From: Gammaproteobacteria bacterium
GTDB taxonomy: Bacteria > Pseudomonadota > Gammaproteobacteria > Eutrophobiales > Eutrophobiaceae
NCBI GenBank assembly: GCA_965202915.1
Contig: OZ241847.1
Location: forward strand, 2,194,242 to 2,258,241
DNA length: 64,000 nucleotides
Direction of reading: 5' to 3'
Part shown: piece by piece, positions 948 to 17,593 of the stretch
How the letters are laid out: each line of letters starts with the position of its first letter
Position numbering within the stretch: the first letter of the stretch is position 1
Notes under the pieces: model-generated
What the model was told of the DNA's origin: nothing
The model's input: the letters and a program-made list of their open reading frames with translations, nothing else
The model's database searches: none
Made by a program: the position numbers and the translations under genes

Positions 948-1076
948 ATTTTCACTTAATCTGTGAATATATCTCACTGATGGCGTTCGCAATGTTTATC
1001 AGGTGGCTTGTTTAGCCTTAAAGCAGGCACAAACCCTTAGCCCACACAACCGCGCGACAGCCTTTATTCCGGGAGA

Positions 1077-1124
1077 AACATTGGCTGAACGCAACATTGG
1101 CTGAACGCAACATTGGCTCACGCC
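1077..1124. repeat. 16-bp direct tandem repeat, about 3 copies (aacattggctgaacgc x2, then the degenerate aacattggctcacgcc)
   Basis: Read directly from lines 1021-1081. It lies in the divergent intergenic region between the aminotransferase start (947) and the GT-C/TPR gene start (1260). Confidence 0.9.
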
Positions 1125-1259
1125 GGCATTTGCCACGCCACCCCCTATGCCTGGCGGCATACATACCGTTGACGCATCACCATGGGGTCATTAAAATATT
1201 CCCGTGTCGCACTACGGACTGGAATCTTCCCTCACACTTAATAATGAGAATCATCAAAA

Positions 1260-3146
1260 GTGAGTAGGCAATCAAATTTCAATGCCAGAAAACGCGGCAA
1301 CAGGAACCGACGCCGGCAAGCCAAATCGCAACCGGTTTCGCCAACAAGCTCAAAGCCATCAGCGACAATATCAGCAAGGGAAAGTATCCATATTACCCCG
1401 GCGCCGCACGGGCCGGAGTCACCCGTCTCCGCCGCGGCACCGGAAGCCGCCATCGCAACCGTATTCGCGCTGCCGGCACTATGCCTGTTAATCACCCTCA
1501 GTTACCTGCCCGCAACCTGGGCGGGGTTGGTGTGGGACGACGTCGTACTGACGATGGCCCAACCGTTGCAACATCTGTCCGGCCTATGGGATATCTGGTT
1601 CGCGCCCCGTTCCCTTTCCCAGTTTGAGGGACACTACTGGCCGCTTCTCTATACGTCTTTCTGGCTGGAGAATCGATTGTGGGGCGTCACCCCGGTCGGC
1701 TATCATATTGTCAACCTTGTACTACATGGCTTGGTCACAGTACTGCTATGGCGCCTGTTACTAAGGCTGGCCGTTCCCGGTGCCTGGTTTGCGGCGGCGG
1801 TGTTCGCGGTACATCCCCTGCACGTGGAGTCCGTGGCATGGATCATCGGACGCAAGGACGTGCTGGCCTCACTGTTTTATCTGGCCTGCGTGCTGAGTTA
1901 CCTGCATTTCATCGAGGCCCGGCGGCGCCGGTTTTATGCCGCGGCACTGGCACTGTTCATGGCGGGTCTGTTGTGCAAATCCATCCTGGTCACGCTGCCC
2001 GTATCGCTACTGATCTGGCACTGGTGGCAACAGGGGCGCGTGACGCCGGCCGACGTGCGCAGAGTGCTGCCGTTCCTGCTGCTGGGGCTGTGCGTCACGA
2101 TCGCCGACGTCTTGTTCTACAAGAGCAGGGATCCCACCGCCTTTGACTATTCAATCGTTGAACGGCTACTGATCGCGGCGCAGGCATTGTGGTTCTACCT
2201 GGGAAAACTGGTCTGGCCGACGCAACTGGCGGTCATTTACCCGCGCTGGGAGGTCGGCGTCGCCAACCCGCTGGCCTGGGGGTGTTTGATGGCCGCCTTC
2301 GCTGCGGTGGCGGCGCTGTGGTTCGGGCGCCACCGCATCGGTCGGGGGCCGCTGGCGGGTGCACTGTTCTTCGTGGTGACGCTGTCGCCGACGCTGGGCT
2401 TCGTGGACTATGGCTACATGCTGTACTCCTTTGTCGCCGACCGCTACCAATACTTGGCCGGGGCCGGTGTGATTGCAACACTGGCCGCAGCCGTAACCCT
2501 GGGCATGGGCAGACTGCCGGGCGCATACCGGCGCGGAGCGCAGGGCATGGCGGTGCTGCCGCTGGCCGCACTGGGCGTCATCACCTGGAACCAGGCGGGA
2601 ATCTACCGGGACAACTACACTTTTTACAGCCACGTCCTCTCTCTCAACCCGCAGGCCCGCTTCGCCCACCACAGTATCGGCCTGGAGTATCAAAAGCAGG
2701 GCCGCCACGAAGAGGCACTTGCCGCTTTTGAAACCGACTATCGTCTTGCCCCGGAGCAGCCGTCCCCACGGGTGCGCATGAGCAAGGCCCAGACCAGCAT
2801 CGGAACGTCGCTTGCGGCACTGGGCCGGATCCAGGAAGCGGAGGAGCACTTCCGGCGCGGGGTTGAGATCGCCCCGGACTTTCCGGGGGCCTACGATCAT
2901 CTGGGCGGGTTCCTGATCACGCACAAGCGTTACCGGGAGGCCCTCGAAGTTTTTCAAGCCGTCATCACCATAACGCCCGGCAATGCAAGGTTTCACGTCG
3001 GCCTGGGGGTCTCGCAGGCGGGCTTGGGACGGCTGGATGAGGCCTTGCAGAGCTACGAGCGGGCGCTGTTGATAGACCCCTTGCAGGAGCAGGCGCTAAG
3101 CAATCGCGCCAGCCTGTTGAAGTTCAGAGAGAGTGGCGGCGGATAG
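1260..3146 (+). CDS. Polytopic GT-C-fold glycosyltransferase-like protein (TMTC/PMT_2-like) with C-terminal TPR repeats; paralogue of 9789-11648
   Basis: 628-aa ORF with a GTG start. It has multiple hydrophobic segments and a first-loop LVWDD acidic motif. GHYWPLLYTSFWLE...GYHIVNLVLHG and AVHPLHVESVAWIIGRKD are also present. The C-terminal ~170 aa shows TPR-like periodicity (EALAAFE, EAEEHFRRGVEIAPDF, EALEVFQAVI, EALQSYERALLIDP). The region is GC-rich with third codon positions mostly G/C. Confidence 0.75.
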   Translation: MSRQSNFNARKRGNRNRRRQAKSQPVSPTSSKPSATISARESIHITPAPHGPESPVSAAAPEAAIATVFALPALCLLITLSYLPATWAGLVWDDVVLTMAQPLQHLSGLWDIWFAPRSLSQFEGHYWPLLYTSFWLENRLWGVTPVGYHIVNLVLHGLVTVLLWRLLLRLAVPGAWFAAAVFAVHPLHVESVAWIIGRKDVLASLFYLACVLSYLHFIEARRRRFYAAALALFMAGLLCKSILVTLPVSLLIWHWWQQGRVTPADVRRVLPFLLLGLCVTIADVLFYKSRDPTAFDYSIVERLLIAAQALWFYLGKLVWPTQLAVIYPRWEVGVANPLAWGCLMAAFAAVAALWFGRHRIGRGPLAGALFFVVTLSPTLGFVDYGYMLYSFVADRYQYLAGAGVIATLAAAVTLGMGRLPGAYRRGAQGMAVLPLAALGVITWNQAGIYRDNYTFYSHVLSLNPQARFAHHSIGLEYQKQGRHEEALAAFETDYRLAPEQPSPRVRMSKAQTSIGTSLAALGRIQEAEEHFRRGVEIAPDFPGAYDHLGGFLITHKRYREALEVFQAVITITPGNARFHVGLGVSQAGLGRLDEALQSYERALLIDPLQEQALSNRASLLKFRESGGG

Positions 3147-3391
3147 TGCTAAAGGGCTCAAGATAAATATATTCTGCGCGGCAAAGCGGGAACATCGGCC
3201 AATAACACCGAGGAAAGGCATCACACACCACAACCAGATCGTGGCCATTCACGCCGACCAAGAGCGAATGAACCGGCAGGTACTCACACCCCACCTCAAA
3301 AGACCAGTTGTCATTGAACGACATATTCAAGATTCCGATCTTACGATTCGGATGGTTTCGGTGATAATGGTGGGCAGGGGGGCAGGGTCAC

Positions 3392-3841
3392 TCATATTCT
3401 CTTTTGTGGCTTCTCCAGCATTTTTCCAAGCTGATTCAGTTTTCTGTTAAGAAGTTGCCCGTCTTTTAGCTGACATTCCCATATCCGCAATACTTTCCAT
3501 CCGTTGTTTTTAAGCGTCTTGTTTACCAGCCTGTCACGTTTCTTGTTGGCATATATTTTTTTAACCCAAAAATCTCTGTTGTTTTGGGGAACTTGGCCGT
3601 GCTTTGGGCAATCATGCCAGAAACATCCATCCATAAAGATCGCAAGCTTACTGTTTGGAAATACAATGTCTGGCTTGCCGAAAATCGGGTATCTGCGTCG
3701 CCATCCTATCACATGATTTCGCTTCAATATTTTAAGCAGTTTCCCTTCGGTTGATTTGTTTCCAGTAGAACGCACCTTACCCATAATCCATGAACGTTTT
3801 TCTTTTGAATAGACGTCAACCATTTTTCTTGACGTTGTCAA
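3392..3841 (-). CDS. vsr: Very-short-patch repair endonuclease Vsr
   Basis: 149-aa ORF containing GKPDIVFPNSKLAIFMDGCFWHDCPKHG, NRDFWVKKIYANKKRD and GWKVLRIWECQL. Its start overlaps the 3' end of the upstream ORF by 26 nt (3816-3841). Confidence 0.9.
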   Translation of the reverse strand: MTTSRKMVDVYSKEKRSWIMGKVRSTGNKSTEGKLLKILKRNHVIGWRRRYPIFGKPDIVFPNSKLAIFMDGCFWHDCPKHGQVPQNNRDFWVKKIYANKKRDRLVNKTLKNNGWKVLRIWECQLKDGQLLNRKLNQLGKMLEKPQKRI

Positions 3842-5477
3842 GCCTAAACAATAAAAATGAAATTAGACTTAGAATATCAAGGCAACTATTTTCTGGAAAT
3901 AATATATTTGATGTTGTCCTAGGTTCATGGTGCGTTGGATTTCTGAATGCTTGCACCAAACCAACTGAAAGAAATTGTTGACCCCTTTGCATGTTAAGTT
4001 CTGTGTCGTCGGAAAGGTCTGAAATTTGAAGTATTGGAAGCCTGGTTATTGTTGTTCTCCCTCTCTCGTTGTGTGATTCAAAACTAAAAGATTTATGCAT
4101 CAAATCAGTAGATGAATAATTAACACCAGCCTTATCTCTAATTTCCCTTTCATAAATCACCACTCCCTCTTTTGCAGCATCCAGATATCGGGCATTTTTA
4201 TAATCTTCGTACAGTCGATCCCTGATAAGCTGATGCAAATTTCTCCAATGATAATAAGGGTAAGAAGGTATAAGTTTTTTAAACTCGACAAACAGCCGAT
4301 TTGATTCAATAGTTTCTATTTCAGGAAAATCTTCAATCAGTTTTTCAGTAATAACCTCAATACTATTCTGAATTTCCTCCGGCATAGAATTTTTCCAGTC
4401 TTCCAGACCAATATCGCCAAGGCTGTTATCAACCTCGGCTATTTTCTTTTCTTTACGCTTTCTACGCCAATCCAATTGAACGAACTGGACACATTTCTCA
4501 AGATATGTATGAAGTTTGCTAGTTTGTAAATACCCCCAGTTTAGGTTTTGTCTGTTAGTGGAAATTACGTCCTCTGAAAAATCTTCTATAAAATCCACTT
4601 CCAACCATCCCGTCATATAAGAAAAGAAATGACTGGACGTGCTATCAGAAAATTGATAAGGAGATTGCACGAGTTTCCCCCGCGAAAACAAAGAAATACC
4701 CCTTGAATCAAATCTTGGTGCAATGGGCTTTTCAGGCGTAATGATCTTTCCCTGAATCTCAGACCGGTGCTCATAATCTGATTCTATGTTTGAAAAATCC
4801 TCGGGGAAATTCCAAGAAAATTCTTCACCAAATGCGGAGAAGTGCATATCATTGGACAACATTACCGGGTCTTCATCGTTACGCCTTACGGTAACGGAAA
4901 AATCTTCATCGAAAATAAAAAACCTTGCTATGCTGTTGGCAAGAAATTTTTCCGAAAAATCAGATTCTCTATTGATGTTTGTAAGTATTATTTGAGTTCC
5001 GGATTGACCATCTTCAACAATTTTGTCAATTACTTGCGGGATCATTAAATATTTCCCTCTCGTGGAGTTCATTAAATCATCCCAATCCATCGTAAAAATA
5101 TTTCTTTTTCCCTGTTGAACAGTGTTTACGGTAATTGTCCGAACAATCCCAAAGAATGAAAGCTTGCCCAAACCCTTTTTACCGATAACCTTCCTACCTC
5201 TCGGAGTCAACTCTTCTCCATCTTCTCTGCGGTTTCTCCCAATAACAAGAAATTTCTTGTCAATATCATTAAAAGACATTCCTGTTCCATTGTCCGTTAC
5301 AATAATTTCTTTTTCATTAATATCATTCAACTGCACTTCCACTTTTGTGGCATCTGCATCATATGCGTTGGCTAGCAGCTCACTTAAAACCGGAGGAAGA
5401 GTTGAGTACATACGAACTCCAAGGTGCTCTATAACTCTTGGGTCAAACTTCATCGTCAATTGATTAGATTCCAGCAT
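3816..5477 (-). CDS. GHKL (HATPase_c_3/MORC-like) ATPase with a C-terminal TIGR02391 (Hypoth_Ymh)-like domain
   Basis: 553-aa ORF with Bergerat-fold motifs: N-box SELLANAYDA, G1 VTDNGTGM, G2 GKKGLGKLSFFG. The C-terminal ~120 aa (YLDAAKEGVVIYEREIRDKAG...DLMHKSF...QRGQQFLSVGLVQAFRNPTHHEP...LSLISFLLFRLD) matches my recollection of the TIGR02391 pattern. It includes an R-x4-H motif (RNPTHH). Confidence 0.75.
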   Translation of the reverse strand: MLESNQLTMKFDPRVIEHLGVRMYSTLPPVLSELLANAYDADATKVEVQLNDINEKEIIVTDNGTGMSFNDIDKKFLVIGRNRREDGEELTPRGRKVIGKKGLGKLSFFGIVRTITVNTVQQGKRNIFTMDWDDLMNSTRGKYLMIPQVIDKIVEDGQSGTQIILTNINRESDFSEKFLANSIARFFIFDEDFSVTVRRNDEDPVMLSNDMHFSAFGEEFSWNFPEDFSNIESDYEHRSEIQGKIITPEKPIAPRFDSRGISLFSRGKLVQSPYQFSDSTSSHFFSYMTGWLEVDFIEDFSEDVISTNRQNLNWGYLQTSKLHTYLEKCVQFVQLDWRRKRKEKKIAEVDNSLGDIGLEDWKNSMPEEIQNSIEVITEKLIEDFPEIETIESNRLFVEFKKLIPSYPYYHWRNLHQLIRDRLYEDYKNARYLDAAKEGVVIYEREIRDKAGVNYSSTDLMHKSFSFESHNERGRTTITRLPILQISDLSDDTELNMQRGQQFLSVGLVQAFRNPTHHEPRTTSNILFPENSCLDILSLISFLLFRLDNVKKNG

Positions 5478-5489
5478 AATAAAACTATC

Positions 5490-6530
5490 TCAGCCCGAGT
5501 AAAAAGATTTCGCTATTCTGTAAGCAAGTTGCGGTGGCACTGCATTGCCTATTAGCTTGGCTGCGATCATTGAACTTTCACACGCAAAAACATAGTCTTC
5601 GCTGAACGTTTGTAGTGTTGCACCTTCTCTTAGGGACAATCCTCTGTTCTCCTCGGGATGGGCAAATCGACCATTTGAAATCCCGTTAAATCTCGTTGTA
5701 ATTGTTGAAGAGGGTTTATCCCACCTCAATCTCCCATAAACATCCCGAAAAGAATTATCTTTGCCTTTGTAGGTGTTCAATTGAAGCTCGGGGTCGTCTT
5801 TCCATGCGCTCCTTGTCCCGCCGTCTTTGGGTGTTAGCTTGAGCCGTCTCAAATTTTTTTCGGATAACGATGAAACTGTATCCATGAAATTATTTTCATC
5901 CTTATAACCGGATTGCAGAACGGGAAATCCATTATGGGTCCCTATAAATTCCTTCAATACGGATTCTTTCTCCGGTTGGGGAAGATCAATCGATTTTTTT
6001 ACCCTGGAAGCAATCAAGATAAATCTCTTTCTGCTTTGCGGAACTCCATAATACTTGGCATTGATAATATCCTCGACAATCTTATATTCTTTTTCAAGTT
6101 TCCGACAAAATTTGTCAAGCCCACTTTCCGCTTTGTTTCTTTTTATTCCCGGAACATTTTCTATAATTACATAACCCGGTTTGTAGTAACAGACAAAGCG
6201 CCAAAAATGATCAAGCAGTCCTCTGGTGTTCTCCGATGATCTTTTGTTCGTATTCAGGGTGGTCCAGTGCTGGCATGGGCTGCACCCTATAAAGATCAAA
6301 GAGTCGTCATTGCGTTTAATCCCACAATTTTTTTCCAGAAAAGTTCGTGGTGTGTCTTCTATATCTTTTAGAAAAAATTTTGTCCCCGGATGATTTGCCT
6401 CATATGTCTCTTTACAATCCTCATCCACATCTATCCCGGCAACAACCTTTACTCCGGCCATCTTTAACCCTTGGGACATGCCGCCGGCACCGCAAAAAAA
6501 ATCAACCGCTCTTAAGGATTTTTTTCTCAT
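5490..6530 (-). CDS. dcm: DNA (cytosine-5)-methyltransferase
   Basis: 346-aa ORF with the canonical m5C-MTase motifs. These are I DFFCGAGGMSQG, IV GCSPCQHW, VI IIENVPG, VIII QSRKRFILIA and X GNAVPPQLA. Its start overlaps the stop of the upstream ORF (ATGA, 6527-6530). Confidence 0.95.
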   Translation of the reverse strand: MRKKSLRAVDFFCGAGGMSQGLKMAGVKVVAGIDVDEDCKETYEANHPGTKFFLKDIEDTPRTFLEKNCGIKRNDDSLIFIGCSPCQHWTTLNTNKRSSENTRGLLDHFWRFVCYYKPGYVIIENVPGIKRNKAESGLDKFCRKLEKEYKIVEDIINAKYYGVPQSRKRFILIASRVKKSIDLPQPEKESVLKEFIGTHNGFPVLQSGYKDENNFMDTVSSLSEKNLRRLKLTPKDGGTRSAWKDDPELQLNTYKGKDNSFRDVYGRLRWDKPSSTITTRFNGISNGRFAHPEENRGLSLREGATLQTFSEDYVFACESSMIAAKLIGNAVPPQLAYRIAKSFYSG

Positions 6531-8872
6531 TCGCCACCGCCCAAACTGGCTATTAATGTTACTATATGTGCCGCAACCGCGGACGAGGCAGCACGCACGA
6601 CAGAATCTTCGTCATATTCCTCCCGGCCATCGGAATTATCTTCGGAGTCACTGACAAGTCTCTTATACATTGCTAATGTGAGAATGCCCACCCCCACCCT
6701 GAAGCGGTGCCTGATGATCTCTCTCTTACCCTCATCTGATTCTTTGGAAATTAAGTACAAGAGATATTTATTGGCTTTGTTCACATATATGGTTAGCGTT
6801 TCTCCTCTGGACACATGACCGCCCGACTCTTCATTGTAGTTATGTTCATCCCAATATTCTTGCTCCACCCACTCAATATTCGGAAATTCCCGAGCCGGTC
6901 TCTCTTGATTGTTTGTGTCTGTTTCATCCCCGGGCGGGTTTCTTTGAGTTTCTTCCGCACTGGCAATTTTGATCATTACGTCAAAAGTCAGAGGATCTGT
7001 TCTTTCCGGGTTTGAGTCATCAAAGCCAAACTGAACGGCAATTTCATCTCCTACTTTTGCCCCCGCGGGAGTTATGACTTTTATTCGGAATTTTCCATTA
7101 CGCAGAGAACCCGAATGTGGCAATATATCAGGTGATGGGTGAATAAACTCCCCTCGGTTGGCATCTCTTATCAAATAATCATTTTGAGCGTCTGTTCTAC
7201 ATTCAATTCGTCTGTAAGAATTTATGGGAACACTCTTAACATTGCCCTCCTCCAAGTGCGTGGGAGTTAAATATGTGGGGAACAATTTCCCTTCATATTG
7301 ATCCTCACCTCCGGATGTTGCAATCTGACTGTCAACAATACTTCCAACATCAAATAGTTCTTGAAGATCCGGATTATCTTTAACAAGATTGGAAAGAAAT
7401 TCTTTATCGGTCTGCTCTTCTATTTGCTCGCTAATACGACGGTTTTTTATTTCTCTTGCATATTCCCTAAGTTCTCCGCTCCCGGCCAAGGCATCTATAA
7501 TAATTTTCTTTAGTTCTCTCGTGAGCCCTATGTCCGCCATTCTTTCCCTGTCCGATTTAAACACGGCGGCTCGCGCCGTATTATCCATGGCATTACAATC
7601 TATTTGAACAATTAAATGGTTTCTCAAATCATCCAGTCGCGCCTTCCGCAACAGACTGGCTCTGTCCGCAGATTGGGACTGACCGTTGATCGTGTAGAAC
7701 ATTCTGTATGGCTGTTTGCGCAAATAATCCTTCATTTTCTTCAACCCAAAATAAGATATTCGGATAGTCCCCAAATCCGAATTTTCAGAATTTTCAATTA
7801 CGTTTTCCAAGTCAACTTCGCTTTCCTCACTTCTTTCATCATCGGATTTGAGCACTATATTCATACCGGAAAAAGTTCTCGGTGCAATACCCTCCGCTCT
7901 AAGACCGCTCCTTGTGGGTTGAGCATCAAAATCATAAAGACGAACAGGCAAGGCACAATTTATAAGGTTGGTCGTAAGCGCATCATATAGTCCTATATCA
8001 ACCGCACGGGCACGAGGCCCTATATCGTATTCATATAACTTCACAATGCTGCCACCATTGATGACGACACCGATATCCTCTCTGCCAAAAGCCTTGATTT
8101 CATCGGTTTCAAAACAGGCAATTTCTCCGTCGGGACAAAAATACTCAACCACTGGCAAATCCTCTCCTTCTCGAACTCCTCTTACCCTTATCAAAGTCCA
8201 TCCCCATAGACCATCCGAACCGTAAGTGGTTCTTTTGGACAGAATAAACTTATACATCCCCGCCCTGATATCTGCTCGGGTACAAAAAGGTATGGATCCG
8301 GTGCTACCCATATTAAATCGACCTTGGACAAACGGAATGCCTTCCTTATTCTTTTCTCCAAGAGATAAAAAAGTTTTTCCAAAATCTGTATGATTTTGCC
8401 CCTCACCAAAATCAACTATCGTATAGTTTGGACAAATATCATTTCTCCTTCCTGTTCTCTTAATACCAATCAAAACACTTTTTTCAGCCAGATCAGTCCT
8501 TTGATTCGGGCTTAACAAAGCCAACCTGCCTTCTTGAACTTTGGGGAAAAAGTGTTTGACAGCCTCGCTCATATCTTGGGGAGCTGATTCACCATAAAAA
8601 TCTATTTGCTCTTCCTTTGCCCTGCGCATAAGGATTGCGTCAATGGAATTAATGATTAACTCTGCCAACGCACCGACTGGTTGGCTCGTTTGGACGCTCA
8701 CCCTGTCCCAATTTTTATCCGCGCCGCCGTAAGGCTTCCAATTTTCATCAGCGCTAAATTCAGGCTGGCTTTCCATGAACCGATTAACGTCGTCGGCTGA
8801 CAAAGCACCGAGAAACTTATTCGCTATTAACTTTGAAAGTGGGCTGTTGAAAAATTTTCTCGAATCATTCAT
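6527..8872 (-). CDS. Large uncharacterised protein with a divergent N-terminal GHKL/Bergerat ATPase-like region
   Basis: 781-aa ORF and the first gene of the AT-rich operon. Candidate motifs are N-box LAELIINSIDA, G1 IVDFGEGQ and G2 QGRFNMGSTGS (about aa 68-200). I recognise no motifs in the remaining ~550 aa, which end in an acidic tail (SDSEDNSDGREEYDED). Confidence 0.6.
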   Translation of the reverse strand: MNDSRKFFNSPLSKLIANKFLGALSADDVNRFMESQPEFSADENWKPYGGADKNWDRVSVQTSQPVGALAELIINSIDAILMRRAKEEQIDFYGESAPQDMSEAVKHFFPKVQEGRLALLSPNQRTDLAEKSVLIGIKRTGRRNDICPNYTIVDFGEGQNHTDFGKTFLSLGEKNKEGIPFVQGRFNMGSTGSIPFCTRADIRAGMYKFILSKRTTYGSDGLWGWTLIRVRGVREGEDLPVVEYFCPDGEIACFETDEIKAFGREDIGVVINGGSIVKLYEYDIGPRARAVDIGLYDALTTNLINCALPVRLYDFDAQPTRSGLRAEGIAPRTFSGMNIVLKSDDERSEESEVDLENVIENSENSDLGTIRISYFGLKKMKDYLRKQPYRMFYTINGQSQSADRASLLRKARLDDLRNHLIVQIDCNAMDNTARAAVFKSDRERMADIGLTRELKKIIIDALAGSGELREYAREIKNRRISEQIEEQTDKEFLSNLVKDNPDLQELFDVGSIVDSQIATSGGEDQYEGKLFPTYLTPTHLEEGNVKSVPINSYRRIECRTDAQNDYLIRDANRGEFIHPSPDILPHSGSLRNGKFRIKVITPAGAKVGDEIAVQFGFDDSNPERTDPLTFDVMIKIASAEETQRNPPGDETDTNNQERPAREFPNIEWVEQEYWDEHNYNEESGGHVSRGETLTIYVNKANKYLLYLISKESDEGKREIIRHRFRVGVGILTLAMYKRLVSDSEDNSDGREEYDEDSVVRAASSAVAAHIVTLIASLGGGE

Positions 8873-8924
8873 TTATGAAAATTCACCTAGGTTTTGGTAT
8901 TTAATCAGTACATATCCATAACCG

Positions 8925-9300
8925 TTAAAAATCATTCCCGGAACCAAATGGCCACCCACTTGCGGAATAGGCCCGGATGTCATCATCGCCGGCATATTTG
9001 AACCAAAAAACCGCCGCCGGCACAACCGAACATTTGCCAAGCCGGCAGTTTTCCACCACCACCTTGAGCATGGCGTATTCGCCGTTGACTTGGCAGGCGA
9101 AAGCCAGCATATCGAATGCTACTTGATACGCCAAATGATGTCGAGTTTAATATATCCAGTTTGACCATTACGCATGTCGGTGATGTCGAGATCTTCACGC
9201 AGTGCTTTATCGCCATTGGTTAGGACCATTTTGTAACTGTATTTGTCGCCGCCCGCTAGAATCGCCGGACATACGGACTCCCCGAACCAAGAATGATAAC
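8925..9300 (-). pseudogene. hemB: Decayed C-terminal relic of porphobilinogen synthase (hemB-like)
   Basis: Minus-strand fragments lie in different frames, broken by stops. Compared with E. coli HemB from memory: ...ALREDLDIT..DMRNGQTGYIKLDIIWRIK resembles [29 protein letters not shown]. ...LAFACQVNGEYAMLKVVVEN...FWFKYAGDDDIRAYSA resembles [20 protein letters not shown]...GSIKRAGADLIFSYFA. Confidence 0.55.
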
Positions 9301-9788
9301 ATTAGCTCCCTCTACAATCCAGGTATTTCCCAACGCCTGTCCTTCCAGAACACCTATCGACCAAACCATCGGTTACTGACAGAACAACATCTACGGACGT
9401 GGCGACAGCGGTAATTGGGTTATCATGGAATCATCCGATTCACACCATCTCCAGAATATACGGGCGGCAGCATCGGACACTTCCTTGGGTATGTGTGCTA
9501 CCCGCACCTCCAATTAACACGGCCGAGTTGAGAATGTGAACCAAGTATTTCGTTGGTAATTACCCCACATCCTTCGACTTATCAGGTAATGAGACAAGAC
9601 TCGGCAAGGTTACGGGACTTCCCCGGTCACCGTCTGTGCACAATCTTATAATGCTTTTCTGCGAAAATTATGAGGATTGTGTAAAATCCTCTCTTGTATA
9701 GGATTAGGATACCCTCTTGCCACACTTCAGACTGAAATCTGCCTTCTCCTCAAGAAAGGAGTGGCGCAAGGTGAACAGATAATCGGAT

Positions 9789-11648
9789 ATGGCGGCCCGA
9801 AAAAACCGAAACAAGGCCCGGCGCAGGCAAATGAAGCTGCAAACCACCGCCAGGCGCCCCGGCACGGTGCGTAGCCGGACCGGCCCCGTACCCATCAAAT
9901 CGTCGCCGGGCGGGTTGCAATCGCTTTTTTCCGGGCTCAAGCGGAGCGTACTTCACGGGGACCCGATCCCACCCGCACTCGCGGCCACGGCGCTGTGGCT
10001 GCTGATACTCATCAGTTACCTGCCCGCGACCTGGGCCGGTTTCGTGTGGGACGACTTCGCGTTCACGGAGGCCGAACAGGTACTGCGCCCATCCGGTCTT
10101 TGGGATATCTGGTTCAAGCCGCACTCGCTGCAGAATGAAGGCCATTACTGGCCGCTCCTCTATACGACCTTCTGGCTGGAGCACAAGTTGTGGGGGCTGG
10201 ACCCGACCGGTTATCATATCGTCAACCTGCTGCTGCACGGGTTGACCACGCTGTTGTTGTGGCGCCTGCTGCTGCGGCTGGCCGTGCCGGGCGCCTGGTT
10301 CGCGGCGGCGGTGTTCGCCGTGCACCCCCTGCACGTGGAGTCGGTGGCATGGGTTATCGGACGCAAGGACGTGCTGGCGGGGCTGTTCTCCGTGGCCTGC
10401 GTGCTGAGCTATCTGCGTTTCGTGGAAGCTGGTCGCCGCGCACGCTATACGCACTACTTTCGGGCACTGGCGCTGTTCGTGGCGGGACTGTTGAGCAAAT
10501 CCATTGTCGTCACCCTGCCGGTGTCGCTGTTGATCTGGCACTGGTGGAAGCAGGGTCGCGTAGCCGTGACCGACGCACTGAGGACGCTGCCGTTCCTGCT
10601 GCTGGGGCTCGGCATCACGATCATCGACTGGTGGTACTACAAGGACCGGGAAGAGATTGTCCTGGAGGACTACTCGTTGATCGAGCAGACGCTGAACGCG
10701 GCGCACGCGCTGTGGTTCTACGTTGGCAAACTGGTCTGGCCGGCGGAACTGGCAGTCATCTACCCGCGCTGGGAAATCAACGTCAGCGAGCCACTGGCCT
10801 GGGCGTATCTGGTCACCGCCGTCGCGGTGGTGTGGCTGCTGTGGTTCTACCGCGACCGCATTGGCCGGGGGCCGCTGGCGGGGGTGCTGTTCTTCGTGGT
10901 GACGCTATCACCGACCCTGGGGTTCGTCGAGTACGGTTTCATGCAGTTCTCGCTGGTCGCCGACCGCTATCAGTACCTGGCCGGGATCGGAGTGACGGCG
11001 GGCCTCGTGGCCGCCGCGGCCCGCGTTGCAGGCCGGCTGTCGGGTACGCCGGCGAGGGGCGTACAGGCCGCGGCGGTGCTGCTGCTGGTCGTGCTGGGAA
11101 CCATCAGTTGGAACCAGGCGGGCATCTACCGCGACAACTTCACGTTCTACCAGCATATCATCGCTCTCAACCCGCAGGCCAGGAACGCCTGGTACAACCT
11201 TGGCAGAGAGTATTCCATGCAGGGCCGCACGCAGGATGCGCTGGCCGCGTATCTCACCGCCGGCGAGCAGCGCCCCGACCACGTCTGGGCGCATATCGGC
11301 GCCGGGCAGATGGCCGCGGAACTGGGAAGGCTCGCCGAGGCGGAGATGTACCTGCAACGCGCGCTTGCGGTTGACCCGAGTTTCCCGGAAGCCCTCAACA
11401 ATATGGGAGCGCTGCGGCTCAGACAAAAACGCTACAGCGAGGCGCTCGAACTCTTTGAGACCCTGATTGAGATGCAGCCCGAGTACGCCAAGGTTTATTC
11501 TGGCATAGGCGTGGCCCTGGCCGGACTCAGGCGGTTTGAAGAGGCGTTGCGGAGTTTTGACCGCGCGCTTGAACTGGACCCGTCACTGGAAGAGGCGCGG
11601 GTCAACCGCGAGCACGTATTGCGGAACTCCAAAAGCGAGAGCAGGTAA
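9789..11648 (+). CDS. Polytopic GT-C-fold glycosyltransferase-like protein (TMTC/PMT_2-like) with C-terminal TPR repeats; paralogue of 1260-3146
   Basis: 619-aa ORF that is colinear with the 628-aa protein. Shared blocks include ISYLPATWAGFVWDD, GHYWPLLYTTFWLE, LLWRLLLRLAVPGAWFAAAVFAVHPLHVESVAW, RIGRGPLAG.LFFVVTLSPTLGFV and WNQAGIYRDN. The TPR tail is more divergent. Its stop overlaps the next start (TAATG at 11646-11650). Confidence 0.8.
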   Translation: MAARKNRNKARRRQMKLQTTARRPGTVRSRTGPVPIKSSPGGLQSLFSGLKRSVLHGDPIPPALAATALWLLILISYLPATWAGFVWDDFAFTEAEQVLRPSGLWDIWFKPHSLQNEGHYWPLLYTTFWLEHKLWGLDPTGYHIVNLLLHGLTTLLLWRLLLRLAVPGAWFAAAVFAVHPLHVESVAWVIGRKDVLAGLFSVACVLSYLRFVEAGRRARYTHYFRALALFVAGLLSKSIVVTLPVSLLIWHWWKQGRVAVTDALRTLPFLLLGLGITIIDWWYYKDREEIVLEDYSLIEQTLNAAHALWFYVGKLVWPAELAVIYPRWEINVSEPLAWAYLVTAVAVVWLLWFYRDRIGRGPLAGVLFFVVTLSPTLGFVEYGFMQFSLVADRYQYLAGIGVTAGLVAAAARVAGRLSGTPARGVQAAAVLLLVVLGTISWNQAGIYRDNFTFYQHIIALNPQARNAWYNLGREYSMQGRTQDALAAYLTAGEQRPDHVWAHIGAGQMAAELGRLAEAEMYLQRALAVDPSFPEALNNMGALRLRQKRYSEALELFETLIEMQPEYAKVYSGIGVALAGLRRFEEALRSFDRALELDPSLEEARVNREHVLRNSKSESR

Positions 11649-13414
11649 TGGCGAAACGGAAAAACCCCCGCCCCGCCACTCGCCGGCGCCGACAACCTGG
11701 GGCAGCGGCGCCGACAACGGCAACGATGCCCTGGCGGTGGCGCGCGGGCGACGCCTTATTTGCCGCCGACCGCCCGCGGCTCGCCGGCGACGGCGAACAC
11801 TGGACGTATTTCTGGCCGCTGCTGGGCGCGGCCCTGCTGCTGCGCGCTGCCATCGCCCTGTGGGGTGACTTTGTGCTGCATCCGGACGAGATCATGCAAT
11901 ACCTGGAGCCGGCCCACTATGTGGCCTTCGGCAATGGCGTCCTCTACTGGGAATATCTCCACGGCGCACGCAGCTGGCTGATCCCGGGCGCGATCGCCGG
12001 CGTGCTGAAGGCGCTGGATGGCTTGGGGCTGGCGCAGCCGGCCATCTATATCGCCGTGGTGAAACTGTTGTTCTGCCTGCTGTCGCTGTCGGTGCCGTGG
12101 GCCATGTACCGCTTCACGCAAATCACGGTCAACGAGCGATCTGCTCGGCTGGCGCTGATCTTCGGCTGCTTCTGGTACGAACTGGCGGCGCTGGCGCACA
12201 AACCCTTCACCGAATTGTTCAGCACTTCCATTTTCATGGTCGTGCTCGCTCTGTCCGTGGGCAGGGAAGCGGAAAGACCCGCCAGGCTGTTTGCCATCGG
12301 CCTGCTGGCGGCACTCAGCGGTGCGGTGCGCCTGCAGTACGCACCCGTGGCGTTGCTGCTGTTGTTGCTGCGCTCGGTATCCCTGCGCAACGGCGTTGCC
12401 GGGCTGGTGTCGTTATGGGCGGGCGCCGGGCTGCTGACGCTGCTAGTGGGTATCTTCGAATGGCAGACCTGGGGGGCGCCGTTTCATTCCTACCTGAGCA
12501 ACTTCTTTATCAATCTCGCCATTGACCCCGCACGCGCCGGTGAATCAAGCCGATGGCTTCTGTTGGGGCAGTTGGCCGCGGCCAGCGGCGGCATGGCACT
12601 GATCGCCTTTGCCGCTGCGCTGCCCAGGGGGCGGCGGCATCTGCTCATCCTGGTGACGAGCGCGGTGATACTCGTCCTGCACCTGCTCCCGGAGCATCGC
12701 GAATACCGCTTCATCCACGTCCTGATCCCGTGCTGGTTGATGCTGCTGGCGGCCTGGATCGCGCGCTGGGGCGACGGATTGTCCGGCGAACGAGGCCGGA
12801 TATCCGCACTGGCGCGGCGCTGGGGCGCGGCGGCGGTGCTGGCCTTCGGCATCCCAGCCCTACTCAATGCGTTTCCCTGGCAGAGCCGGGTGTACCAGAG
12901 TTTCTCCGTGGAAAAACCGGTGTACTACTTGCGCAATCAGGACCCGATATTTGAGATCATGTCTTTCCTGGCCGCCCAGGACGACGTGCACGGAGCTCTC
13001 TACCATACCCGGGAATACAACGCATACTTCAGCACTGGCGGCTATTACTACCTGCACCACGACGTCCCTTTCTATACCGCGCAAGACACCTGGCAAACCA
13101 TCAGGGAACGGCACCCGGCGGTGCCTCAGGAATCGTTGGTTTCCCATATCGTGACCGAGGCCGACGGCCCCGCCATCCAGGGGTTCGAACGACTGCTCCG
13201 GCGTGGAAACCTGGCGCTGTGGCGGCGCCGGGACAACGACAGTGCAGTCCCCCGCTGGCGCGAGCACGTGATCAAGGTAAGCCATGCGGACCTAAACGAC
13301 CTGGTGAGCAGAACCATGCGGCGCCTGAACGCCTCTTCCATGCTCGACCTTTTCGTAGCCGATGACTTGTACTGGGTGGAGGCGCCACCGTTGTTTGAGT
13401 CGGCGGATGAATAA
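11648..13414 (+). CDS. GT-C mannosyltransferase-like membrane protein (GT22 / PIG-B-ALG9-like)
   Basis: 588-aa polytopic ORF. Its first-loop motif LHPDEIMQYLEPAHYVAFGNGVLYWEYLHGARSWLIPG matches the PDE..Q.LE.AH...FG.G.LTWE...G.RS pattern of Dol-P-Man-dependent GT22 enzymes. It is translationally coupled to the upstream gene. Confidence 0.65.
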   Translation: MAKRKNPRPATRRRRQPGAAAPTTATMPWRWRAGDALFAADRPRLAGDGEHWTYFWPLLGAALLLRAAIALWGDFVLHPDEIMQYLEPAHYVAFGNGVLYWEYLHGARSWLIPGAIAGVLKALDGLGLAQPAIYIAVVKLLFCLLSLSVPWAMYRFTQITVNERSARLALIFGCFWYELAALAHKPFTELFSTSIFMVVLALSVGREAERPARLFAIGLLAALSGAVRLQYAPVALLLLLLRSVSLRNGVAGLVSLWAGAGLLTLLVGIFEWQTWGAPFHSYLSNFFINLAIDPARAGESSRWLLLGQLAAASGGMALIAFAAALPRGRRHLLILVTSAVILVLHLLPEHREYRFIHVLIPCWLMLLAAWIARWGDGLSGERGRISALARRWGAAAVLAFGIPALLNAFPWQSRVYQSFSVEKPVYYLRNQDPIFEIMSFLAAQDDVHGALYHTREYNAYFSTGGYYYLHHDVPFYTAQDTWQTIRERHPAVPQESLVSHIVTEADGPAIQGFERLLRRGNLALWRRRDNDSAVPRWREHVIKVSHADLNDLVSRTMRRLNASSMLDLFVADDLYWVEAPPLFESADE

Positions 13415-13654
13415 AAGTTTGTGGTCACGATCTTACACGGGCAGCCCGATGCCGATACCGTTCGCAGGTGTGGCCCACCGGGCCAGGTGGTCGGCGATGC
13501 TTTCCGACCCCATGGAGCCCCGCGCGGCCCCGGAATAGTCTTCGCAACCGCTCATTGGTTTGCCGGCGACAATATGGCACACTCTCCGGCAGTTTGATTG
13601 TAATGTTGATCCTGTCTTTTGATTTGCTTTTTCATTGCTTTAGGAGGCCCGCCC

Positions 13655-14404
13655 ATGTCCAAAAACCTAAGCGACTTTTCAACCCTGAGCCTGGACTGCT
13701 ATGGCACACTCATTGACTGGGAGACTGGCATTTGGGACGCGCTACAGCCCCTGATCCGGCGATCCGGACGAGACGACGTCGTGCGCCGCCAAGGACTCGA
13801 GGCGTTCGCCCGATTTGAAAATGCCCGCGAAATGGAGACACCGGAGCTGCCCTACCCGGAGATTTTGCAACGAACCCACGCCGACGTGGCGGCCTACCTG
13901 GGAATGACCACCTCGGTGGAACTGGACCGCGAGTTTGCCTGCTCCATCGCCCACTGGCCGGCCTTTGCCGACACCGCCGACGCGCTGCGCCGCCTGCGGA
14001 AGCACTATAAACTGGTGATCCTGTCCAACGTCGACCGGGCCGGATTCGCCGCCTCGGCGACCAAGCTCGGCGTCGCCTTTGACGCCGCCTACACAGCGGA
14101 AGATATCCGCTCCTATAAACCCGCCGCCGCCAACTTCCACTACCTGATCGAACATCTCCAGGCCGATCTCGGCGTTAAGCGCGAAGCCATCCTGCACACC
14201 GCCCAGAGCCTGTTCCACGACCACGCACCGGCCAACGCCTTCGACCTCGCCAACGTCTGGATCGACCGCCAGGGGCTGTCGCATAGCGACAACTGGGGCG
14301 CCACCGCCAGGCTCGACAAGCGCCCCGACGTGGACTTCCTGTTCCCGACCCTGGCGGCGATGGCGGACGCAGTGGAAGGGGAGGTCGAGCCGCCCCAGGG
14401 TTGA
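13655..14404 (+). CDS. HAD-superfamily hydrolase, haloacid dehalogenase type II-like
   Basis: An internal ATG of the 261-aa ORF is preceded by AGGAGG. Motifs are LSLDCYGTLIDWE (DxYGT nucleophile motif), ILSNVD, SYKP and the C-terminal DH/D region. Confidence 0.75.
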   Translation: MSKNLSDFSTLSLDCYGTLIDWETGIWDALQPLIRRSGRDDVVRRQGLEAFARFENAREMETPELPYPEILQRTHADVAAYLGMTTSVELDREFACSIAHWPAFADTADALRRLRKHYKLVILSNVDRAGFAASATKLGVAFDAAYTAEDIRSYKPAAANFHYLIEHLQADLGVKREAILHTAQSLFHDHAPANAFDLANVWIDRQGLSHSDNWGATARLDKRPDVDFLFPTLAAMADAVEGEVEPPQG

Positions 14405-14712
14405 AAGCGGTCATGCACTGTACCAGTTAAGGATATAAATCCAGTGGTGGGTCTGGTACCTGGCGTCGTTCCTGATTCCGCACTGATGGCGGGGCGGGGA
14501 GCAAGTGCACAGCAGGGGCCAGGACTGAACACTTCGGCAGTGGGTGCTGCCTGGCGTCTTGCTGGTTGTACAAACGCGCCGGTGCCACGTTGCTGGCGGT
14601 GCTGCTTCCCACCAATTGCGCCGCCGGGACATTTTTAATGAACTATGTCCACAAAAAATTCACTTGTCCGAGCGAAAGCTTTGTAGTGCCCGCCCTGGTG
14701 CGCGAGATTCAC

Positions 14713-15643
14713 TTACCCGTTCGCCATTGTGGAGACGGTCGTGTATCTGCGCGCGAGTGCCGCACGAGAGACACGGTGTTCGTCGACCAGTGGCGGGATT
14801 CCCCGATGTTGCCGTATTACTTGAGCGGTCAACTCATTTTCTGCTGCGGCCTGGGACACTACACCAGACTGCCCGGTGACCTTGTATAGGGTGATATCCT
14901 CGCGCACTTGCTCCAACAGATAGAATTCCATCCGGGCATGGTTGAAAGCGAAGCGATCTCCTGACCGGTTGTTGAACACCAGCTTGGAGAGCGCAATGTT
15001 GACGACTACCAGCGCGGCCAAAATTGTCAGTATCCAGTGATTAGACAGCCCTAGCCTGCAAACCACGGCAAACCCCTTGAGATGGGTCGGATTTCGACCC
15101 TGTGCGTAAACCAGCGTCAGCAGCAGAATCAAAAGAAAAAGCAGCACGTGTAAGGAATACACCTTCTGGATAATGGACTGCGACCAGAATAGCTTGGAAA
15201 ACCCGTAGGCGAAGCCGGCCATGTAGCCGCCGAGGCGGCCGCCCGTCAGGTGGACCGCCACCAGATATAGCACCGCGCAGGCCGCCGCGCCCAAAAGGGC
15301 GCTCAATATGTTGCCGGCCAGCGGGCGCGAAAGCAACGGCAGGTGGGCGAACGGGAAGCACAACATGCTGTACAGCGGGTAACCCGGCGGGTGCACTGGT
15401 TGGCCGTAGTGGCAAATCAGGTTGAAGATCGCTGCGTCTTCGTAGGTGACGACACGGGGCATCGTGGCCAGATATACGATAAAAAGCCCGGTAAACACGG
15501 CCAGAGGGGGGGCAGCCCTGTCCTTCGATGTTATCGCGTAATGAAAACAAGCTAACCGTAGCGGCGTTGCGCACCCTGTCTTGGGACTGGGGGCGCACCT
15601 TACCCGAACGGGTACGGTTTTTTCTTTTACTCTTTCTGCGCAT
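14713..15643 (-). pseudogene. DUF2723/TMEM260-like GT-C membrane protein, reading frame broken at a C7 homopolymer (pseudogene, phase variant or sequencing error)
   Basis: The 261-aa ORF (14713-15498) carries YEDAAIFNLICHYGQPVHPPGYPLYSML, the DUF2723 first-loop signature. Its frame stays open upstream (..KDRAAPPLAVFTG..). A basic N-terminus MRRKSKRKNRTRSGKVRPQSQ...EGQGCPP lies in another frame, starting at 15643. Removing one C from the C7 run joins the two frames. Confidence 0.6.
15506..15512. repeat. Homopolymeric G7 (C7 on the coding strand) tract at the frameshift point of the DUF2723-like gene
   Basis: Read directly from line 15481 (ccagaggggg ggcagccc). Confidence 0.9.
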
Positions 15644-15956: not shown

Positions 15957-16039
15957 TCGTAATATTTACTCAGTAGTGGACCAATCCACCGCTGTTTTTT
16001 CTTTGATAATACTCTGCACTTTTTTGATTGGATATAGCG

Positions 16040-16215
16040 AGTTCAAGGATGTGTTTGACTCACTGCTAAAAGACAACCCTATCTTCCACATGTCCCGACA
16101 AGCGGCCCTATTCAACCAAAAACTGGCTGACACGTCCCCGCATCGGGGTTGGCTACCCAAATACAACGCCATCCGACCTCATAAAGGAGTTGGACTCAAA
16201 ACACCCGTATGGATT
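16040..16215 (+). mobile_element. Transposase C-terminal remnant (rve/DDE integrase-core tail, IS3/IS481-like)
   Basis: The 96-aa ORF contains ...GWLPKYNAIRPHKGVGLKTPVW. This matches the W..YN..RPH..LG.KTP tail typical of DDE transposases. No catalytic core or terminal inverted repeats were seen. Confidence 0.45.
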
Positions 16216-16329
16216 ACTATCGATAACAACAAAATTTATACAATATGTGGTGGACCCCATACATAGAGTAGTAGAAATATCGCTATGTGGGAGTATATAT
16301 GCAGATAAGGCATAGGGAGTTTCCTAATA

Positions 16330-17304
16330 ATGAAATTAGATGAATTAAATAAATACAGAAGGCTAATACTCATTATTAGTGTTATTGCCTTTTCTCTTTT
16401 GTTAATTGGTGTGTCTGAGGTCTTTCTAGCCAGATATATGGGCCTGGGTGAGCCTGTACTTTATGACTCATCTCCAATATACGGGTATAGGCCATTGCCT
16501 GGAAAAACATACTCTAGATTTTATGGAAAGGAGGTAAAGTTTAATAATCTGGGGCTAAGGTCTGAATCTGATTGGAACGAAGATATTGAAGATAAAATAC
16601 TTTTTCTTGGTGATTCCGTAACTTATGGAGGTTCTTATATTAGCAATACGGAATTGTTTTCTTATCTATCTGTAAAAAATCTGGGAAACAATTACGTTAG
16701 CGGGAATGCCGGGGTAAATGCATGGGGGGTTGAAAATATATATGGTCTTATTGTCGAGTCAGGGTTCATGCCCGCGGGAATTTACGTCACAGTTATTCCA
16801 GAATCTGATTTTTACAGAGGCTTGACTAGAATACACGGGCTCCCTTTCTATAATGAGGATCCAAAATATGCTTTTCAGGAGCTATTTGATTATTTTATTA
16901 TTAATAAAAATAATAATAAGCGATACAAAGGTTGGCAACACTATGCTGATAAAAACACAAAGGCTTTCGTTATAGAAAAAGCAGTGAAAAAACTAAAGAT
17001 GATCGATGTATTGTTAAAGGAAAAGGGGTATAAGCACTTAATCTTTATTTCTCCCAAAAAAAGGCAAGTGATAAAACATTTGGAGAAAGATCTTCTGAAA
17101 AAAGATCCATTGGTTAAAAAATTTCTAACGAAACATGGGCTGTTTCCTTTCTATATAAAAGATGAAATAAATAAGCTTGATTTATTGAGGGAGGAAATAG
17201 AGGGTATCTATCATGGCGACCATGACAACATACATCTTTCAGAAAAGGGCCATAGGCTCTGGGCAAGGATTATAACAAATAAGTTACAAGAGTTACTGCT
17301 TTAG
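16330..17304 (+). CDS. Membrane-anchored SGNH/GDSL-family hydrolase-like protein
   Basis: 324-aa ORF in a very AT-rich stretch, with an N-terminal TM segment (LILIISVIAFSLLLIGV). Block I is ILFLGDSVTYGG, with GNAGVNAWG following. Block V is HGDHDNIHLSEKGH. Confidence 0.7.
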   Translation: MKLDELNKYRRLILIISVIAFSLLLIGVSEVFLARYMGLGEPVLYDSSPIYGYRPLPGKTYSRFYGKEVKFNNLGLRSESDWNEDIEDKILFLGDSVTYGGSYISNTELFSYLSVKNLGNNYVSGNAGVNAWGVENIYGLIVESGFMPAGIYVTVIPESDFYRGLTRIHGLPFYNEDPKYAFQELFDYFIINKNNNKRYKGWQHYADKNTKAFVIEKAVKKLKMIDVLLKEKGYKHLIFISPKKRQVIKHLEKDLLKKDPLVKKFLTKHGLFPFYIKDEINKLDLLREEIEGIYHGDHDNIHLSEKGHRLWARIITNKLQELLL

Positions 17305-17593
17305 TTGGCGTTAAGCCCTGGGTTGGCAGCTAACGATTGCGGGTTTTATTCTGTCGCCATGGGGTCGCTTTGTTGGACAATATATTGCATTAATCTCAAC
17401 AAGTTAATCGCAACCAAAGAATCATTTGGCAACGTATTATCATAATAATTATCTTTCCATTCATAGGGTTATTGTACCGATTTACTTGGCCTGGCTGTAT
17501 AAGCTCAGAAACATATTGCGGGCAATATCCTCGGCGTATATCATGTCATCGTGTGTGACGTTCCGCTATCGCAAGACAACCAGGATAAACAAT

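Follow-up and report, generated by a model that had tools for sequence, protein, structure and literature searches.

The gene studied here encodes a MORC/paraMORC-class ATPase of 553 amino acids, composed of GHKL and S5-fold domains, in which the usual C-terminal DNase is replaced by a Ymh-family HEPN domain. It lies on contig OZ241847.1 (assembly GCA_965202915.1) of a Gammaproteobacteria bacterium from the Eutrophobiaceae. We analysed 64,000 nucleotides of this contig (positions 2,194,242 to 2,258,241 of the forward strand); this whole stretch is called the window, and all coordinates are positions within it. The 553-amino-acid protein partners a Dcm-type DNA methylase, and not the mismatch endonuclease Vsr encoded on its other side. 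We favour the reading, at about an even chance, that it is the effector ('R-like') subunit of an NmeAI-type 5-methylcytosine (m5C) restriction-like module, and that it is a methylation-gated HEPN RNase. The basis computed here is the domain identities, the intact ATPase and Rx4H motifs, the near-obligate pairing with Dcm and the lack of another nuclease in most loci.

Both ends of the protein are identified by profile matches. Pfam HATPase_c_3 matched residues 28–159 (1.8e-22). Hypoth_Ymh (PF09509) matched residues 412–545 over profile positions 1–118 of 119 (5.4e-19; 68.7 bits, cutoff 25), and the match to TIGR02391 scored 65.4 bits, above its cutoff of 39.45. The initial annotation had described a GHKL head with the sequences ELLANAYDA, DNGTGM and GKKGLGKLS, and a C-terminal TIGR02391 domain carrying RNPTHH. 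All of these translate as described, the three head motifs at 5355–5381, 5277–5294 and 5157–5183. A long start for the gene is favoured; residues F11 and H18–G20 are invariant among homologues.

The N-terminal part has the hallmarks of its class. Motifs I–III of the GHKL superfamily (ExxxNxxD, DxGxG and GxxGxG) occur in a Bergerat fold, and, as in MORC and paraMORC proteins, the domain next to GHKL has the S5 fold and contributes a basic finger. The S5 sequence G260ISLFSRGK268LV fits the MORC signature GhXhhpXXRhl except for lysine in place of arginine. For this and all further conservation counts we aligned 76 members of the family, here called GHKL-Ymh, from different species; lysine is found in 68 of the 76 and arginine in 8. 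The GhXhhpXXRhl motif divides MORC proper from paraMORCs (Iyer et al. 2008; PMC2292703). Ymh-fused ATPases were named paraMORCs by Anantharaman et al. (2013; PMC3710099).

The C-terminal domain is a four-helix up-down bundle, which is the HEPN fold. R512-N-P-T-H-H517 sits directly after helix 491–510, and the arginine is followed by a polar residue, N513. The catalytic Rx4-6H motif of HEPN domains closes helix 3, and its R is followed by a polar residue (PMC3710099). Thus, RNPTHH occupies the same place as the HEPN catalytic motif, and the HEPN-like fold expected by the initial annotation is present. Residues of both sites are conserved. E33, DxGxG and GKKGxGK are found in all 76 relatives, and N37 in 75. 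Similarly, R512 is found in 76 and H517 in 75, with N513 in 59. The near invariance of the ATPase and HEPN residues argues that both sites are under strong selection. The least conserved region is the linker, and regional identity between groups is 25–43%. A second near-invariant motif of the Ymh HEPN domain, H410-W-R-x-L-H415 (4233–4250; H410 in 74 relatives, H415 in 73), may be part of the active site or of a substrate-binding surface.

We also examined the genes that accompany the family. In a collection with a single genome for each species, we found 373 GHKL-Ymh relatives, and 80 loci from different species were analysed. The family ranges over Patescibacteria, Proteobacteria, Bacteroidota, Actinomycetota and archaea, includes proteins of Neisseria pathogens, and comprises more than 3,000 protein clusters. 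A Dcm-type methylase gene lies within 300 bp of the GHKL-Ymh gene in 78 of the 80 loci; in 72 it directly precedes that gene in the same orientation. A vsr gene occurs within 2.5 kb in 30 loci (17 of the 50 with complete flanks). The gene for a second ATPase, P781, which is described below, is present in 10. After clustering of open reading frames (ORFs) of at least 120 amino acids, no other partner recurred around the Dcm and GHKL-Ymh pairs in more than 8 of the 80 loci, and there was no separate nuclease. Those genes that did recur, in up to 8 loci, were unrelated defence genes. Hence, with Dcm near-constant, Vsr in a minority and no other recurrent gene, the conserved unit is Dcm plus GHKL-Ymh. 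The two proteins also co-diverge (Mantel rho 0.46; 0 of 500 permutations reached the observed value).

These counts bear on one of the two proposals made in the initial annotation, namely that the 553-amino-acid protein serves Vsr as its dedicated, portable MutL-like cofactor, so that the mobile methylase brings its full T:G repair machinery. In Escherichia coli the GHKL+S5 ATPase MutL likewise acts beside Vsr and Dcm, the combination found in the window. We nonetheless regard this proposal as very improbable. Vsr is missing from 50 of the 80 loci, and from 33 of the 50 with full flanks, against the two that lack Dcm. Once loci carrying P781 are excluded, Vsr is found in 22 of 70, and its tie to P781 is the stronger one (see below). 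Furthermore, the invariant HEPN Rx4H motif would be left without a role, and there is no MutL C-terminal dimerisation/endonuclease domain. The observations of the initial annotation are confirmed and its interpretation is partly supported. Identity as a MutL was also considered directly and rejected. The TIGR00585 profile reached 33 bits where the cutoff is 180, aligning with residues 30–74 only, and matches to MutL sequences in the Protein Data Bank (PDB) spanned residues 29–103 only; the C-terminus is HEPN.

In a classical Type II system, the R protein must match the specificity of its methylase independently. Type III enzymes recognise their target through the Mod subunit. GHKL-Ymh proteins had no hypervariable or specificity region, of the target recognition domain (TRD) type, that tracked the Dcm cluster. 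Divergence was even over four regions, and only two positions (M/L) discriminated the GHKL-Ymh groups. In addition, one composite lineage combines a cluster-B-type GHKL-Ymh protein with a Dcm that is only ~30% identical to cluster-B Dcms. The missing TRD-like region and the switched methylase partner point to recognition by the methylase, like Type III Mod. Hence, the methylase probably supplies target recognition for the GHKL-Ymh protein. The window Dcm is 56–58% identical to the gonococcal remnant of an NmeAI-type methylase, and M.NmeAI methylates C5mCGG (PMC4676702). By this likeness, the specificity of the window Dcm may be CCGG.

The NmeAI system is the closest relative of the window genes with a name. 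Its parts are M (C5mCGG), R and a gene for patch repair (PMC3787668, PMC4676702). In Neisseria meningitidis (M.NmeAI, putative R.NmeAIP and V.NmeAI) and in the gonococcal counterpart, the order is M, GHKL+Hypoth_Ymh and Vsr, as in the window. Identities between the gonococcal and window proteins are 56–58% for M, 31–39% for R and 38% for Vsr, and the FRNPxxHE motif is present. Unlike the window, Neisseria NmeAI has no P781-type gene upstream, and the activity of its R protein is putative. The gonococcal locus (NZ_CP119142.1, 2600–5600) is decayed. The methylase is in two ORFs, the GHKL-Ymh gene is broken into two ORFs of 297 and 198 amino acids, and vsr is intact. NZ_CP119142.1 is a 2.17-Mb chromosome that is listed as a plasmid in PLSDB.

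The conventional view, which is that of REBASE for R.NmeAIP, is that such a protein is an ATP-dependent DNA restriction endonuclease. It would cut unmethylated DNA through the HEPN domain or an unrecognised site. The M-then-R order with tight coupling in 72 of the 80 loci agrees with this view, as do the joint decay of M and R in Neisseria gonorrhoeae and the cataloguing of the gene as a putative Type II R gene (PMC2441816, PMC3787668). So does the N-terminal module, which is common to the BbrUII/HgiDII restriction enzymes (NF050001; SalI isoschizomers). Over ~390 amino acids of GHKL, S5 and linker the window protein is homologous to these enzymes (3.6e-66), and full-length BbrUII/HgiDII-family members on Acinetobacter and Pantoea plasmids are also encoded directly downstream of Dcm. 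However, the C-terminal ~260 amino acids of BbrUII/HgiDII, a presumed DNase of unassigned fold, are missing from the window protein, which has the HEPN domain instead. Its alignment covers NF050001 model positions 2–397 of 659, whereas true relatives span 2–649. Membership of the family was rejected (224 bits against a cutoff of 550), and the protein is homologous to these enzymes in the N-terminal module only. Given the homologous N-terminus and the different C-terminus, we place the window protein beside the ATP-dependent restriction enzymes, as a sibling in which HEPN has taken the place of the C-terminal effector. Effector swapping within a restriction-enzyme family is thus seen for the GHKL+S5 module.

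Three further observations count against DNA cleavage. The confident model of the 553-amino-acid protein contains no PD-(D/E)xK, HNH, GIY-YIG or PLD fold, and HEPN is its sole effector-like domain. The protein has no TRD-like variable region to match the methylase specificity, and its methylase partner has been switched. Finally, every characterised HEPN active site cited in the survey of the superfamily is a metal-independent RNase (PMC3710099). On balance, we consider the DNA endonuclease view unlikely. Moreover, we know of no NmeAI-type R protein for which sequence-specific cleavage of unmethylated DNA has been demonstrated.

GHKL proteins such as MutL and MORC undergo ATP-driven dimerisation and clamp DNA. 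By analogy, under the RNase-effector reading, ATP binding would dimerise the GHKL heads of the 553-amino-acid protein, which would then clamp DNA. Contact with DNA not marked by Dcm, probably mediated by the methylase, would join the two HEPN domains to form an active, metal-independent RNase. Cutting of RNA would arrest the cell, resulting in abortive infection or post-segregational killing. Conversely, Dcm-methylated host DNA would hold the RNase off. Vsr would repair the T:G damage arising from the m5C methylase, and P781 would be a second MORC-like ATPase added upstream of the same methylase in the window operon.

Several points weigh against this RNase-effector reading. The literature was searched for GHKL+HEPN, TIGR02391 and bacterial MORC proteins, and no experiment on any member was found; RNase activity, toxicity, ATP dependence and methylation sensitivity of the protein are all predictions. 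REBASE-style annotation makes it a DNA restriction enzyme. The window shows no depletion of CCGG, with 537 sites where its composition predicts 242; under methylation protection, such abundance says little either way. Lastly, the window copy departs from the family consensus (at least 90%) at two positions only. One is E298, a conservative change from the family D. The other is S531 (codon 3885–3887), where 74 of the 76 relatives, all of the closest ones included, have D. Residue 531 belongs to a near-invariant D-C-L motif that opens the last HEPN helix, and serine here could alter activity.

P781 is encoded by the first gene of the operon. The ~N-terminal 440 amino acids form a MORC-like GHKL+S5 ATPase that is recognisable through predicted structure only. 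They are followed by a helical region, an Ig-like beta-sandwich and then long C-terminal helical regions, and no nuclease fold was detected in the predicted structure. Profile-profile comparison (hhalign) of the P781 and GHKL-Ymh families gave nothing, nor did a P781 profile search of the PDB, and ten distant P781 members had no Pfam matches. The family contains 783 clusters at E ≤ 1e-30.

We counted neighbours at the 23 loci anchored on P781 whose downstream sequence was long enough; 20 have Dcm, 18 have Vsr and 1 has GHKL-Ymh. The common order is P781-Vsr-Dcm, with overlapping genes, and the Vsr proteins there are orthodox. Vsr is therefore more frequent at P781 loci (18/23) than at GHKL-Ymh loci without P781 (22/70; Fisher p = 1.7e-4) and, among GHKL-Ymh loci, more frequent with P781 (8/10) than without (22/70; p = 0.005), statistics that have to be read with the phylogenetic non-independence of the loci in mind. 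The idea of a MutL-like Vsr helper fits P781 better than the 553-amino-acid gene, for which Vsr co-occurrence is weak, and is the better hypothesis in that form. By analogy with MutL, P781 is a candidate mobile partner of Vsr. One P781 homologue has other neighbours. In a Gammaproteobacteria AqS3 metagenome-assembled genome (locus L086, 8410–13999), it is followed by an unannotated 240-amino-acid gene in place of Dcm and adjoins a 1596-amino-acid DUF4011/AAA_11/AAA_12/MTES_1575 helicase-nuclease, with a Vsr-like restriction endonuclease domain.

P781 and GHKL-Ymh have been combined with one shared Dcm on at least two independent occasions. The first type of composite (the window; L002–L007 and L056) has P781, a cluster-A Dcm, GHKL-Ymh and Vsr. 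The second type (L030, L050, L057 and L104) has P781-Vsr-(P781-type Dcm) with a cluster-B GHKL-Ymh gene. Two independent composites, with different gene order and Dcm lineage, suggest functional synergy between the two ATPases.

The composites are also relevant to a guard role like that of PrrC and RloC, which has been proposed for paraMORC-Ymh fusions (PMC3710099). The HEPN RNase would be latent, restrained by a restriction-modification (R-M) machine and freed when a phage inhibits that machine, with unmethylated DNA itself not being the trigger; here, the guarded system would be P781 plus Dcm. PrrC/RloC anticodon nucleases combine, as in our proposal, an NTPase with a HEPN RNase at the C-terminus, and they share with it a place within an R-M locus and the logic of abortive infection. 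The likeness is analogous and not homologous, since their NTPase is ABC/Rad50-like with a P-loop and not GHKL. In the window and 9 other loci, P781 would be the second R-like protein on the same methylase, and the repeated origin of composites accords with this. Conversely, 70 of the 80 loci offer only a lone Dcm to guard, with no restriction endonuclease, P781 or other recurrent gene, whereas PrrC is found beside a complete type I system, which has a DNase of its own. P781 itself has no recognisable nuclease domain. We judge a guard role rather unlikely.

A broader proposal, which we make more tentatively than that of the RNase effector, joins the two families. Dcm plus GHKL-Ymh might be an R-M system that has an RNase restriction arm, uses the methylase as sequence reader and dispenses with a DNase. 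Its MORC-type DNA clamp would thereby tie self/non-self discrimination by DNA methylation directly to abortive infection. The P781 family might then be the true portable MutL-like partner of Vsr, and the window would unite a repair/nicking arm with an RNase arm, both built on one methylase.

The four genes are on the minus strand and form one tight operon in the order P781, dcm, the 553-amino-acid GHKL-Ymh gene and vsr (Table 1). P781 and dcm overlap by 4 nt, and a spacer of 12 nt separates dcm from the GHKL-Ymh gene. The downstream gene encodes a genuine, orthodox Vsr, with 115.6 bits for TIGR00632, whose cutoff is 97.85. The match to this profile starts at residue 7 of the maximal vsr ORF, and the homologues in loci L004 and L005 have 143 amino acids and also an 8-nt overlap. 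Hence, the start of vsr is likely to be ATG 3823. The initial annotation was right that the two genes overlap; its figure of 26 nt holds only for the maximal ORF from TTG 3841. The shorter overlap, ATGGTTGA, suggests translational coupling. Vsr is an ordinary companion of m5C methylases, where it repairs T:G mismatches that result from deamination of 5-methylcytosine.

Table 1. Genes of the operon, and domains and motifs of the 553-amino-acid protein, in window coordinates.
Feature	Coordinates	Strand	Remarks
P781 gene, 781 aa, first gene of the operon	6527..8872	(-)	cryptic MORC-like GHKL+S5 ATPase
dcm, C5 cytosine DNA methyltransferase	5490..6530	(-)	PF00145 5.9e-52; TIGR00675 138 bits
GHKL-S5-helical linker-HEPN(Ymh) gene, 553 aa	3816..5477	(-)	stop codon 3816-3818 included
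GHKL (Bergerat) ATP-binding domain, aa 1-170; E33/N37/D40, D62xGxG66, G99KKGxGK105	4968..5477	(-)	HATPase_c_3
S5-fold transducer domain, aa 171-315, with G260ISLFSRGK268LV	4533..4967	(-)	
Helical linker, aa 316-405, with 36-residue helix 317-352	4263..4532	(-)	AlphaFold2 (AF2) secondary structure
Ymh-family HEPN domain, aa 406-553	3819..4262	(-)	
RNPTHH, R512-H517 Rx4H motif	3927..3944	(-)	translation verified
Likely overlap ATGGTTGA, 8 nt, GHKL-HEPN stop codon / vsr start codon	3816..3823	(-)	direct sequence reading
vsr, T:G mismatch endonuclease (very-short-patch repair), 143 aa from likely start ATG 3823	3392..3823	(-)	TIGR00632; maximal ORF from TTG 3841

The operon cassette was clearly acquired horizontally. 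Its GC content is 38–45%, that of the flanking glycosyltransferase/TPR block is 57–66%, and the rest of the window is at about 50% (48–53%); the mosaic was followed over 1000–3150, 3150–9500, 9700–15500 and 16000–17500. Two paralogous GT39/TPR-like ORFs (1260–3146 and 9789–11648) are split apart by the cassette. A search for repeats at the island boundaries, tRNA targets and promoter or terminator signals gave no convincing flanking repeats; scan counts were close to the shuffle expectation, and the sole tRNA is 12 kb away. Between the operon start and the next host gene lie ~900 nt (8873–9788) with short, unconvincing ORFs only, one of which (61–69 amino acids, 8925–9134, minus strand) was called in a metagenome copy of the locus. 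This interval may have a promoter or regulatory function, or be an insertion remnant. A further patch of low GC content (36–40%) holds a 324-amino-acid ORF at 16330–17304 on the plus strand.

The architecture of the 553-amino-acid protein has been described before from computation, and on its sequence the protein is a new member of that group. Orlowski and Bujnicki (2008; PMC2441816) described R.NmeAIP, a putative REBASE enzyme, as a GHKL N-terminus with a Hypoth_Ymh C-terminus. The R-M operons in which Iyer et al. (2008; PMC2292703) described MORC and paraMORC ATPases abound in genes for cytosine methylases and Vsr; some encode two distinct GHKL proteins, and the authors drew an explicit analogy with MutL-Vsr. 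In the published paraMORC families, PD-(D/E)xK or TIR effectors hold the position taken here by HEPN. Anantharaman et al. (2013; PMC3710099) reported paraMORC ATPases with fused Ymh HEPN domains in R-M neighbourhoods and proposed a PrrC/RloC-like role. The domain architecture and genomic context of these fusions match the window exactly, and the prediction of an RNase effector applies. The papers of Iyer et al. and Anantharaman et al. are purely computational, and neither the two-gene core of Dcm and GHKL-Ymh nor its optional Vsr is reported there.

A parallel for control of an effector by GHKL comes from VcSduA, a paraMORC3-type Shedu protein. Like the window protein, it is one polypeptide with an N-terminal GHKL ATPase that is thought to control a C-terminal nuclease effector, and both its ATPase and nuclease activities are needed for phage defence (PMC12137116). 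Conversely, the effector of VcSduA is a DUF4263 PD-(D/E)xK DNase, there is no linked methylase, and the protein belongs to another paraMORC family.

Taken together, our analysis quantifies the conserved core as Dcm plus GHKL-Ymh with Vsr optional, and provides evidence against a sequence specificity of the GHKL-Ymh protein's own. It also brings to light P781, a cryptic second family of MORC-like ATPases that is invisible to profile libraries and tightly linked to Vsr and Dcm. The GHKL-Ymh family is widespread, and has been labelled a restriction enzyme by prediction for ~20 years. If HEPN is the effector, these proteins would constitute an R-M-like system that reads DNA methylation and acts on RNA, and the line between restriction and abortive infection would be blurred. 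They would then also offer a tractable bacterial model of how a MORC-type ATPase couples DNA or epigenetic sensing to an output.

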